Assembly (NCBI GenBank): GCA_964592525.1
Contig: CAZQFB010000005.1
Location: 1-58,687 of the forward strand
Direction: 5' to 3'
Origin: an uncultured Candidatus Saccharibacteria bacterium
Lineage (GTDB): Bacteria; Patescibacteriota; WWE3; CAZQFB01
Length of the DNA: 58,687 bases
Of the stretch, positions 18,793 through 23,496 are shown in pieces (the stretch's first letter is position 1; each line of letters begins with the position of its first letter). The position numbers were made by a program, and so were the translations under genes. A model generated the notes under the pieces. It saw nothing but the letters and a program-made list of their open reading frames with translations, had not been told where the DNA came from and did not search any database.

Positions 18793-19983
18793 TTATTTAA
18801 GTACCTTAGTAATAACACCAGCCCCCATAGTATGACCACCCTCACGAATAGCAAACCTTAAACCTTCCTCTAAAGCTACCGGCGTCACCAACTTCACACC
18901 AAAATCAACATTATCACCAGGCATCACCATCTCCGTACCTTCCTGTAGCGTCACTTCTCCAGTCACATCAGTAGTCCGAAGGTAAAACTGTGGGCTGTAA
19001 CCACTAAAGAAAGGCGTATGACGACCACCCTCATCTTTACTAAGCACGTAAATTTGTGCCGCAAATTCTCGGTGTGGTGTTACCGAACCTTTTTTAGCTA
19101 ATACTTGACCACGTTCAACATCATCACGATTAATTCCCCGTAGTAAAATACCAACATTATCCCCAGCCTGACCTTCATCCAAAGCTTTCTTAAACATTTC
19201 CACCCCAGTCACCGTAGTAGTAACGGTGTCCTTAATGCCCACAATCTCTACCTCATCTCCTACTTTTACTATGCCTCTTTCAATTCGACCAGTAACTACC
19301 GTGCCACGTCCTTCAATAGAAAAGACGTCTTCAATAGGCATCAAGAAGGGTTTGTCTAACTGTCTTTCGGGGGTAGGAATATACTCATCAACCGCTTTAA
19401 TTAATTCTTTAACTGATGCAACAGCCTCCGCATCTCCTTCTAAAGCTTTAAGAGCTGAACCTCTAATAATGGGTATTTCCTCACCGGGATATTCATATTT
19501 AGTAAGCAGCTCTCTTAATTCCATTTCCACTAATTCGGCGATTTCATCTTTTTCAGAAGCGTCCAGCATATCCATCTTATTTAAATAAACAACTAAAGCT
19601 GGAACGTTAACCTGTCTCGCTAATAAAATATGCTCTTTTGTTTGAGGCATAGGACCATCAGCCGCAGAAACTACCAAAATAGCCCCATCCATTTGTGCCG
19701 CTCCAGTGATCATGTTTTTGATGTAATCAGCGTGACCAGGAGCATCAATATGAGCATAATGCCTCTTTTCTGATTCATACTCCACGTGAGCAATAGAAAT
19801 AGTAATACCTCTTTCTCGCTCTTCGGGAGCATTGTCGATTGAATCAAATTCTCTAAACTTAGAGGAACCTTCTTCGGCTAACACTTTAGTAATAGCTGAA
19901 GTAAGGGTTGTTTTACCGTGATCAACGTGACCAATAGTCCCGATATTCACGTGTGGTTTTGTTCTTTCAAATTTTTCGGCCAT
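18793..19983 (-). CDS. tuf: elongation factor Tu
   Basis: [27 protein letters not shown]. Confidence 0.99.
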
Positions 19984-20048: not shown

Positions 20049-22166
20049 CTATCTACTTTTAATTATTCCTTCTGCTACGTTGATAGGTACTTCCTCATAA
20101 TGAGAAGGCTCCATATTAAAACTGGCTCTTCCTTGAGTCATACTTCTCAAAGTAGTAGCATAACCAAACATCTCAACCAAAGGTACTAAAGCGGATACCT
20201 CACGTAAATTACCCCGTGGCACGGTGCCTTCAATCTGACCCCTCTTGCCACTAAAATCACCAATAACATCACCCATAAAATTCTCTGGGCAAAGAACACT
20301 AACGCTCATAATGGGCTCTAACAAGACTGGGCTGGCTGCCCGCACTGCTTTCTGCAGTGCTTCGGAACCAGCTATCTTGAAGGCTATCTCGGAACTATCC
20401 ACCTCATGAAAGGAACCATCCAGCAGGGATATTTCAATATCAACAAGGGGGTAACCCGCCAAAACCCCTCGACCAAGAGCTTCTTCAATACCAGCTTTCA
20501 CCGCTGGGATGTACTCTTTGGGAATTGACCCACCTGTAATTTTATCAACAAAGATGTAGCCTTCTCCTCTCCCTCGGGGTGCAATTTTAATCACACAATG
20601 ACCATACTGCCCCCGACCACCAGACTGACGGACATATTTTCCTTCTGCTTCCACAATATTACGGACTGTTTCTCTAAAAGCCACTTGCGGCTTACCTGTT
20701 GTAGTATCCACACTAAATTCCCGACGCATTCTCTCCGTTAAGACCTCTAAATGCAACTCTCCCATACCATAAATAACTGTTTCCCCGGTTTCACTGTTGG
20801 TACTAACTCTAAAAGTTGGATCCTCCTCTGCCAACCGTGCTATGGCCAGACCCATTTTTTCCTGATCCGCTTTTGTTTTTGGCTCAATAGCTACTGATAT
20901 TACCGGCTCGGCAAAACTGATAGACTCAAGAACTACGGGAGCACTTTCATCACATAAAGTATCACCAGTGGTGGTCTTTTTCAGACCCACAACCGCAACA
21001 ATCTCACCAGCTTTAGCTTCCTGTACTTCTTCCCGGTTATTCGCATGCATTAATAACAGTCGCCCCACCCTTTCCTTTTCCCTTTTAGTGCTGTTGTACA
21101 AATAAGAACCAGCTTTGATAGTTCCAGAATAAACACGAACGTAGGTTAACCGACCAACATATTGATCTGTTTGGATTTTAAAAGCTAACGCTGCTAAAGC
21201 TTTTTCAGAATCTACTTCCAACAACACCTCTGCTTCATTTTTAGGATTAATGCCTTTAACCGCAGCTACTTCCAGAGGAGACGGTAGATAGTCAATCACT
21301 GCGTCTAACAAAATTTTTACGATCGCACGACGACCATCACCCCCTAAATAAGGATAAAAAGAACCAGCTAAAGTCGCTTTACGAATAGCCCTCCTTAGCA
21401 AGAGAGGGGTAATCTCTTCTCCACTTACGTACTTATCTAATACCTCTTCATCACTATCAGCCACTAATTCCAGCAACTCCAAACGGTATTTTTGCAGACT
21501 CCCTTGGAGTTCCTCGGGCACAGCAATCTCTTGCCAATCCAAACCATCAGCATCAACATAGGCGTAGGCTTTCTGTTCCACTAAATCGATTGTCCCATGA
21601 TAATCATGCTCAATCCCTAAAGGCAATTGGAGAGGACCCACATTAGGAGATAAGCGCTCTCTAACCGATTCTAGGCTTTTATAAAAATCCCCCCCTAACA
21701 GATTTAGTTTGTTGGCAAAAATAATACGAGGAACATGGTATTTATTGGCTTGGTTCCAGACTGTTTCGGATTGAGGTTCCACCCCCATTTTACCATCCAA
21801 TACCACTACTGCTCCGTCTAATACCCGCAAGGAACGTTCAACTTCAGCGGTGAAATCAACGTGACCAGGAGTGTCAATGATATTGATGCGGAAATCATCT
21901 CCTTGCTCCTGAAGCCATTGCCTGGGAGACCAAAAACAGGTTGTGGCAGCCGAAGTAATAGTAATACCTCGCTCTCTTTCCTGATCCATCCAATCCATAG
22001 TCGCCTCACCTTCGTGCACTTCACCTATCTTATAGGAGCGACCAGTATAAAAAAGCACGCGTTCGGTAATAGTCGTTTTACCGGCATCAATATGAGCAAT
22101 AATGCCAATATTGCGAATTCTTTCTAACGGATATTCTTTAGTGATGGTTTTGTTATGTACGGCCAT
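20049..22166 (-). CDS. fusA: elongation factor G (non-canonical G4/G5)
   Basis: [41 protein letters not shown]4 is NKLN and the G5 region is GGDGR. Confidence 0.97.
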
Positions 22167-22302: not shown

Positions 22303-23496
22303 TTAACGGACCATAAGATTAATAGTTGTTGTGGTTGAATCTCCTCCCAAGTCATAAGCTACTGCTGTGAACACATGGCTACCACTTGAAGGCTTCTCGG
22401 TTAAAAAGTACCAGTTTTCCTCCACCTGTATCCCCGGACCCTCAAAACAAATCTCATGTTCGGTAAGATCGGATGACGTACGAACATCATAATAAGTGTT
22501 ATCACTAGCAAAAATATGAATGAACCCTAGATCAATTAAACAATCATCAACCACCCCAGACCAGTTACGATAATGGCGAAAGTTATAAGAGAAATTTTTT
22601 TCCATTACCTGTTTCTCTAACCACTGCCGACTGCTCTTACTCGCCTCTGATTGTTTTTGAAAATCAACCGCAACAGTATCACCAGACAAAGCCCTAGCAG
22701 ACACTACCCCAACTTCCCCACCATCAATAAAAAAATGGGTTGCCTGGACGTCTTCACCGGTAGCGAGTACCCTCGCTCTAAATTGCAGACCGTTTCCTCG
22801 CTGTTGCACTGAAAGGTAAAGCTCCGGACCCAACTCATCACTTTTAGCTAAAGGGCTAGCACCAGATATTTCGAGAGAAGCAAAAACCGTGTTTATGACG
22901 TCAGTATAATCATAATCATTGACGCTTAACAAAGCCTGAAAAAGGTAGGTTTGTTCACCATGAATCAAATAATAATCTTGTCGCACTATGTTTTCTTGGC
23001 TTTTTGGAGCTGCTGCCAAAAAGCGATGGTTGGTAAAGGTTGTAGAGGTCAAGGTCTCCACTTGTTCTGGTGCTTGTTGTTTAACCGTAATAATCAGTAC
23101 TGGTTGCGTACCAAGACGTAAATCATGCGTAGAATAAAAGAGATAATTAGCTTCGGGATATAGAGGATCGCTTGACCGCCTTTCCCAATAAGGCGGATAG
23201 TACAAGGTGGTTTCCTTACTAGCGCCAAATTCAAAGTGCTGCCAATTTTCTATTTTTGAGGGTTTACTTTCTAAGACACCCTCTTGGGCATTAACTAAAG
23301 TAACTGCCGCATCTATCTCTTTTCCGGTTTGCTGCCTAAATAGACCAATACCCAAGCCACAGGAAAAAAACAGTAAAACAAAAACAACACCATAAATCAC
23401 CCGCAACCAATTAATTGATCTTGAAAGGTTTAGGGGTGAAGTAGCAATAAACACCACCCTACGACCGGGTGGGAGTGCTTTCTTTCTTGTTGTCAT
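22303..23496 (-). CDS. membrane-anchored exported protein (PsbP-like segment plus Ig-like C-terminus) inserted in the str operon
   Basis: One N-terminal TM (VIYGVVFVLLFFSCGLGIGLF), a W..F...LYYPPYW motif, and a C-terminal GSHVFTAVAYD..G..TTTTINLMV Ig-like strand pattern. Confidence 0.6.
   Translation of the reverse strand: MTTRKKALPPGRRVVFIATSPLNLSRSINWLRVIYGVVFVLLFFSCGLGIGLFRQQTGKEIDAAVTLVNAQEGVLESKPSKIENWQHFEFGASKETTLYYPPYWERRSSDPLYPEANYLFYSTHDLRLGTQPVLIITVKQQAPEQVETLTSTTFTNHRFLAAAPKSQENIVRQDYYLIHGEQTYLFQALLSVNDYDYTDVINTVFASLEISGASPLAKSDELGPELYLSVQQRGNGLQFRARVLATGEDVQATHFFIDGGEVGVVSARALSGDTVAVDFQKQSEASKSSRQWLEKQVMEKNFSYNFRHYRNWSGVVDDCLIDLGFIHIFASDNTYYDVRTSSDLTEHEICFEGPGIQVEENWYFLTEKPSSGSHVFTAVAYDLGGDSTTTTINLMVR

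Follow-up and report, generated by a model that had tools for sequence, protein, structure and literature searches.

The window analyzed here, a stretch of 58,687 nucleotides (contig CAZQFB010000005.1, assembly GCA_964592525.1) from an uncultured, ultra-small Candidatus Saccharibacteria bacterium, encodes on its minus strand an elongation factor G (EF-G; gene fusA) in which the guanine-reading Asp of the G4 motif NKxD is replaced by Asn and the G5 loop is altered as well. Comparison with other bacteria of the candidate phyla radiation (CPR) indicates that this is a real, clade-wide, and strictly coupled rewrite of the EF-G base pocket, carried on an exchangeable cassette that comprises the G4 loop, the G' subdomain, and the G5 loop. 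As far as can be judged from the sequences, the new element is that the two loops and G' behave as one block.

Nucleotide-Pocket Motifs of the EF-G

The relevant features of the gene are as follows; residues are numbered along the 705-aa product of the open reading frame (ORF).

20049..22166, minus strand: fusA, five-domain EF-G of 705 aa (ORF call, TIGR00484, Pfam)
22074..22097, minus strand: G1 P-loop AHIDAGKT, residues 24-31; canonical, invariant in 64 variant-type sequences
21957..21971, minus strand: switch I RGITI, residues 66-70; canonical, invariant
21861..21875, minus strand: G3/switch II DTPGH with the catalytic His, residues 98-102; canonical, invariant
21702..21713, minus strand: G4 NKLN, residues 152-155; Asn155 replaces the guanine-reading Asp (D140 of Thermus thermophilus)
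21330..21344, minus strand: G5 GGDGR, residues 275-279
21357..21689, minus strand: G' subdomain, about residues 160-270; assigned to the variant lineage by the G' tree
21303..21725, minus strand: variant cassette (G4 loop, G', and G5 loop), residues 148-288; differs as a unit from canonical EF-Gs

The catalytic machinery (P-loop, switch I, and the switch II His) is untouched, and only the base-pocket loops and G' differ; the tip of domain IV is also the same as in canonical bacterial EF-G. A first-pass annotation of the window, made from the sequence alone, had placed NKLN at 21713-21702 and GGDG (residues 275-278) at 21344-21333, and both motifs are found in the 705-aa ORF at exactly these coordinates; the 20-residue string around the G5 loop spans 21356-21297.

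The HMMER alignment sets N152-K153-L154-N155 opposite N137-K138-M139-D140 of T. thermophilus EF-G, and G276-D277-G278-(gap)-R279 opposite G261-S262-A263-L264-K265. The G5 loop is one residue shorter, and its changes are Ser to Asp277, Ala to Gly278, deletion of one residue, and Lys to Arg279. Asp277 is placed at the G5 Ser by MAFFT as well as by HMMER. In the AlphaFold2 model of the protein (predicted local distance difference test, pLDDT, 83.9; predicted template modeling score, pTM, 0.78), the G5 loop has a pLDDT of about 90, and G' shows confident strands and helices.

Distribution of the Variant and Coupling of G4 With G5

EF-Gs with Asn in G4 are further called N-type, and those with the canonical G4 Asp D-type. 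The pooled set of 222 full-length CPR EF-Gs contains 151 N-type and 71 D-type sequences. N155, G159, G276, D277, the deletion, and R279 are seen in 151/151 N-type sequences. D155 is present in 71/71 D-type sequences, nearly all of which have Ser/Thr-Ala-Leu in G5; Ser or Thr stands at the G5 position in 67. The link between the loss of the G4 Asp and the G5 changes, proposed by the first-pass annotation for one protein, is thus strict: the coupled change occurs in 151/151 N-type vs. 0/71 D-type sequences, and no intermediates are seen. Because the same coupled change is invariant in all variant-type homologues, it is neither a sequencing accident nor a product of chance; N155, D277, and R279 are under strict constraint. 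The best 120 homologues of the EF-G in the window split in the same way, into 64 with NK[IL]N and G-D-G-(deletion)-R and 56 with NK[LM]D and G-S/T-A-L-K, with no mixed forms.

Outside the invariant residues, some variation of the G5 loop is observed in both types. The N-type EF-Gs of family f3 (L032-L034, L039-L041, L043) have GD[F/Y]-R instead of GDG-R, with an aromatic residue at the canonical Ala position. The canonical-type EF-Gs of family f14 (L016, L020, L022, L024, L027) have odd G5 loops, GSALGNIG, GASLSNVG, and GASLANIG vs. GSALKNKG, and in some of these the Ser is shifted by one position.

Among 40 same-class genomes, entire families have a single type; the GTDB family f14 contains both. 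The G4 pattern is found in 166 of 401 evenly drawn Patescibacteria genomes, vs. 33 for the reversed-pattern control (about 35%); N-type EF-G is hence present in roughly a third of Patescibacteria. A scan of GTDB species genomes with the pattern NK[LIM]NxxGG[DN]F yields at least 118 matching stretches. About 105 of the 118 matches listed are EF-Gs with GGD[GSN]R; these matches come mostly from Saccharibacteria (Ca. Minimicrobia vallesae IHU2, with a complete genome, is one of them), and also from Berkelbacteria, Doudnabacteria, Dojkabacteria, and WWE3. The listed hits labeled as non-CPR were rejected: some are chance matches in ORFs of other kinds, and the others are EF-Gs on short contigs (3-20 kb), probably the result of mis-binning. 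The latter include N-type CPR EF-Gs in metagenome-assembled genomes (MAGs) labeled Bordetella, Methylococcaceae, and Gammaproteobacteria (L062, L112, and L116). Full-text literature searches found no published description of a CPR or Saccharibacteria EF-G without the NKxD Asp.

Inheritance of the G4-G'-G5 Cassette

Neither the rest of the gene nor genome taxonomy agrees with the distribution of the cassette. The tree of the 222 sequences constructed without the motif columns requires 5 changes of type. The number depends strongly on the part of the protein: a single change is needed for the 113 G' columns that lie between the two loops (the motif columns themselves left out), 7 for the N-terminal part alone, 11 for domains II-V alone, and 10 for all columns other than G'. 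An IQ-TREE analysis of the G' columns in 60 representatives gives one N/D split, with a Shimodaira–Hasegawa-like approximate likelihood ratio test (SH-aLRT) support of 79. For the same columns, a topology that retains the clade of 10 sequences around f14 seen with the rest of the gene (six of the D-type and four of the N-type) is rejected by the approximately unbiased (AU) test (p = 0.005). Conversely, when residues 145-300 are removed, the AU test on the remaining 567 columns rejects the N-type as one clan (difference in log-likelihood 444, p = 6e-5).

Pairwise comparisons show where the two histories part. In same-type pairs, the identity of G' rises from 0.48 to 0.90 as identity elsewhere rises; in cross-type pairs it remains at 0.41-0.45, also where the remainder of the protein is 80-85% identical, a range in which same-type pairs reach 0.69. 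In matched pairs, the excess divergence between types is evenly spread over residues 163-274; it does not extend beyond residues 148-288, and its edges at G4 and G5 are sharp. An individual case is the N-type sequence P0020 and its whole-gene sister, the D-type P0040: they are 89% identical in the N-terminus before G4, 37% in G', and 77% in domains II-V, whereas G' of P0020 is 60% identical to that of the N-type P0003. When the G' tree is rooted on one outgroup sequence, that of T. thermophilus, the N-type forms a single derived clade (n = 151, support 95), with a Woykebacteria-type canonical clade as its sister.

Taken at the level of the alignments, these data show G4, G', and G5 (residues 148-288) to be inherited as one cassette, and this cassette appears to have arisen once within CPR. 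In f14, N-type and D-type fusA both lie between rpsG and tuf. We infer that resident fusA genes of the str operon have exchanged the cassette in situ by homologous recombination. G' would hitch-hike because a crossover between G4 and G5 would produce a mismatched pocket, and the hitch-hiking may therefore be taken as evidence of strong epistasis between the two loops; recombinants in which G4 and G5 are separated are not seen, and presumably do not survive. Compared with the first-pass annotation, which dealt with the motifs of one gene, the change is clade-wide, belongs to a 140-residue block, and this block has probably been exchanged between genes.

Some observations speak against this history. 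The recombination reading rests on protein-level incongruence, and one of two post-hoc AU tests on G', that for P0020 and the f5 group, is not significant (p = 0.34). The rival reading is convergent co-evolution of G' with the motifs, in which G' would track the type after several independent D-to-N switches, or an error in the rest-of-gene tree. G' is the fastest-evolving part of EF-G, its alignment is short, and the N/D split has an SH-aLRT of just 79 in IQ-TREE, all of which would favor such an explanation, as does the non-significant test. We nevertheless consider it improbable: a set of five coupled motif changes, one of them an indel, would need at least 5-10 independent origins; G' of P0020 is not merely diverged from that of its sister P0040, it resembles that of the type to which the sister does not belong; the excess divergence is even along G' and ends sharply at the two loops; a single N clan is rejected by the 567 columns outside the block; and one family, f14, holds both types.

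Identity, Copy Number, and Context of the Gene

The protein scores 1040 bits with TIGR00484, the EF-G equivalog model (cut-off 659.4), and matches all five Pfam domains (GTP_EFTU, EF-G_D2, EFG_III, EFG_IV, EFG_C) above their cut-offs. The EF-G2 models are not reached (NF009377, 529.5 bits vs. the cut-off of 890; NF058620, 445.9 vs. 1000), and the full-length HMMER alignment with T. thermophilus EF-G scores 896 bits. The genome that holds the window (852 kb, 10 contigs, 95% complete) yields no second EF-G in a TIGR00484 search, the other matches being LepA, IF2, and EF-Tu. A protein search of 40 same-class genomes gives one EF-G per genome, and Ca. Minimicrobia vallesae IHU2 and two other N-type genomes that are complete or near-complete also have a single EF-G; the remaining matches in these searches are LepA-, TypA-, or IF2-like. 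The description of the gene as the only EF-G, situated beside tuf in the str region, is therefore upheld, and in none of these genomes was a separate canonical fusA found. By these sequence criteria, fusA appears to encode the single, working EF-G of the cell.

A degenerate or moonlighting paralogue, or an assembly error, has a practically negligible probability. We found nothing in support of either. The gene is the sole copy in its genome and in the searched relatives, its full-length score lies above the equivalog cut-off and below those of EF-G2, and its catalytic motifs are invariant; an assembly error would have to account for identical residues in 151 independent assemblies.

The gene order is rpoC-rpsL-rpsG-(397-aa ORF)-fusA-tuf-rpsJ, with the following neighbors.

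18793..19983, minus strand: tuf (EF-Tu), 65 nt downstream of fusA; canonical NKMD and GSALK
22303..23496, minus strand: 397-aa ORF between rpsG and fusA, with an N-terminal hydrophobic helix

The 397-aa ORF has no Pfam or NCBIfam match, and a tblastn search of the fusA loci from 29 same-class relatives gives no homologue. Its appearance is that of a str-operon insertion specific to this lineage.

Other GTPases of the Genome

As stated in the first-pass annotation, EF-Tu of the window keeps both canonical motifs, NKMD (19581-19570) and GSALK (19461-19447). LepA of the same genome has NKID and SAK, retaining the G4 Asp and the G5 Ser-Ala; the G4 Asp is also kept in IF2 (NKID) and Obg (TKGD). Since EF-Tu, IF2, LepA, and Obg all retain this residue, the cell runs on guanosine triphosphate (GTP). 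More generally, EF-Tu is canonical in 45 of the 46 N-type loci where it is readable.

The exception is Dojkabacteria MAG-123 (L140, JAHDCA010000032.1), where EF-Tu, a minus-strand ORF from offset 7076, lies beside an N-type EF-G and has NKFG for NKxD and VNAL for GSAL, with no carboxylate at either position. A relocation of the Asp parallel to that proposed for EF-G was considered for this protein and rejected, as the parallel is only partial: the G4 Asp is lost, but G5 is VNAL.

As a possible metabolic correlate, we considered nucleoside diphosphate kinase (NDK, PF00334). It is present in 13 of 21 N-type and 14 of 19 canonical same-class genomes, i.e., its presence is not associated with the EF-G type among these 40 genomes. 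Separately, the NDK homologues of this genome (G000:C7:17222-17734) and of about 20 same-class genomes match the Pfam model in two pieces, 1-52 and 58-135, and their ORFs are 180-240 aa long, which suggests that the NDK of this class carries an internal insertion of some 30-40 residues.

Nucleotide Preference of the N-Type Pocket

In canonical GTPases, the side chain of the G5 Ser contacts the G4 Asp (S145 and D119 in Ras). The reading that we prefer, as a proposal that could fall either way, is that the N-type pocket is a compensated rewiring which still uses GTP. The carboxylate reading N1/N2 of guanine would now be supplied by G5, next to the G4 loop that originally carried it; Asp277 would take the place of the G5 Ser and be oriented by, or paired with, Asn155; Arg279 would assume the stacking role of Lys; and the factor would keep binding and hydrolyzing GTP on the ribosome. 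Guanine recognition by a carboxylate outside NKxD (the "D/E plus" pattern) is common among solved GTP-binding proteins, being seen in 20.5% of 298 complexes (PMC11594714). The proposal is also favored by the G4 Asp of the other GTPases in this genome, by the alignment of Asp277 with the G5 Ser, and by the lack of association between NDK and the EF-G type.

Several points weigh against this proposal. The register of the G5 deletion is ambiguous, and because of this Asp277 may not sit at the Ser position. Asn155 is invariant; had Asp277 fully taken over, drift at position 155 might be expected. There is no solved N-type EF-G in the PDB, where all EF-Gs aligned to the cassette are of the NKMD/GSA type. 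Finally, loss of the G4 Asp together with an acidic G5 residue gives preference for adenosine triphosphate (ATP) in SpoIVA and in engineered Era (PMC7952092).

The last point leads to the main rival, which we regard as less likely, namely, that N-type EF-G translocates in nature with ATP as the preferred nucleotide or with ATP and GTP alike, and that the cassette spreads as a whole from lineage to lineage. In such a pocket, adenine N1 would receive a hydrogen bond from Asn155, and the N6 amino group would give one to Asp277 or to the remodeled, shortened backbone of G5. SpoIVA became an ATPase through loss of the G4 Asp and gain of an acidic G5 residue, and changes of both kinds made Era prefer ATP (PMC7952092). 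The main-chain NH of the G5 Ala reads guanine O6 in 85.6% of complexes (PMC11594714), and in the N-type this Ala is replaced by Gly beside a deletion. The invariance of both Asn155 and Asp277 is expected if both touch the base, and the loss of the G4 Asp, with no G5 Asp, in EF-Tu of the Dojkabacteria genome L140 suggests that CPR elongation factors may be loosening their reading of guanine. On the other hand, the G4 Lys, lost in SpoIVA, is kept here; the acidic residue aligns with the G5 Ser, on the N1/N2 side, and not with Ser+2, where SpoIVA has the Glu of its SxE motif; all other GTPases of the genome are canonical, hence GTP is available; and no link with the presence of NDK is seen. To our knowledge, no translational GTPase uses ATP.

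A natural D-to-N switch toward xanthosine triphosphate (XTP) or inosine triphosphate (ITP), by analogy with EF-Tu D138N or Ras D119N, was the suggestion of the first-pass annotation. No standing cellular pool of XTP or ITP is known, and xanthine nucleotides are largely anionic at neutral pH. As xanthine is anionic and the new invariant carboxylate adjoins the Asn, XTP would be disfavored in this pocket. The substitution itself is the one that was used to engineer XTP-specific mutants (cited in PMC7952092). There, however, a single change of the Asp suffices, while here five coupled changes are fixed, a new carboxylate next to the Asn among them, so the analogy fits poorly and we consider this switch very improbable. 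From the earlier interpretation, the loss of the Asp, its coupling with G5, and the sole EF-G of the str region stand; altered specificity, as it was formulated there, is not supported.

Implications

The Asp of NKxD is regarded as an almost universal mark of guanine recognition, and we know of no translational GTPase that works without it. In a large part of a major bacterial radiation, including cultivable Saccharibacteria, the only, essential EF-G of the cell lacks this residue. If GTP is kept, as in the compensated rewiring that we prefer, the N-type pocket would be a natural, fully compensated redesign, useful both for understanding the specificity of G proteins and for engineering it; if ATP is used, a textbook rule of translation energetics would be overturned. 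In either case, the cassette would provide a natural example of epistasis, in which two ligand-binding loops travel together and shape where recombination cuts in a core gene. It is also a warning that fusA is a mosaic phylogenetic marker in CPR.

Comparison With Known Systems

Canonical bacterial EF-G (EFG I; T. thermophilus 1EFG/1DAR, Staphylococcus aureus 2XEX, Escherichia coli 7N2C) has the same five domains and the same catalytic motifs, and is likewise a single-copy gene that adjoins tuf downstream of rpsL-rpsG, although here one extra ORF separates rpsG and fusA. The differences are NKLN for NKMD and GDG-R, with a one-residue deletion, for GSALK; in addition, G' of the N-type is a separate lineage, about 42% identical to canonical CPR G' whatever the relatedness elsewhere.

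The engineered XTP-switch mutants (EF-Tu D138N, Ras D119N; PMC7952092) share with the N-type the Asp-to-Asn substitution at the fourth position of NKxD. They are, however, single substitutions made in the laboratory, whereas the N-type change occurs in nature, has become fixed across a large clade, and is strictly coupled to four more in G5, one of them a new Asp. SpoIVA and the engineered Era-ATPase (TRAFAC; PMC7952092) share with it both the loss of the G4 Asp and the gain of an acidic G5 residue. SpoIVA differs in that the G4 Lys is lost (NSxR) and the Glu stands two positions past the Ser (SxE), vs. Asp at the Ser position itself; moreover, it is a cytoskeletal ATPase, not a ribosome-dependent factor.

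Within the EF-G family, non-standard G-domain motifs are also known for EFG II/EF-G2 and the spd-type EF-G, but these paralogues coexist with canonical EF-G and form separate whole-gene subfamilies (PMC3150367). The N-type, in contrast, is the sole EF-G, scores as an EFG I equivalog, and differs in the G4-G'-G5 block only.

In its internal structure, N-type fusA resembles a mosaic gene. Housekeeping genes made mosaic by homologous recombination are known, e.g., pbp in pneumococci and neisseriae, and the likeness consists in a sharply bounded internal block whose history is unlike that of the rest of the gene. Unlike in pbp, the block seen here is ancient, being diverged at the amino-acid level, and resides in a core translation factor, and its limits appear to be set by the epistasis of two loops.

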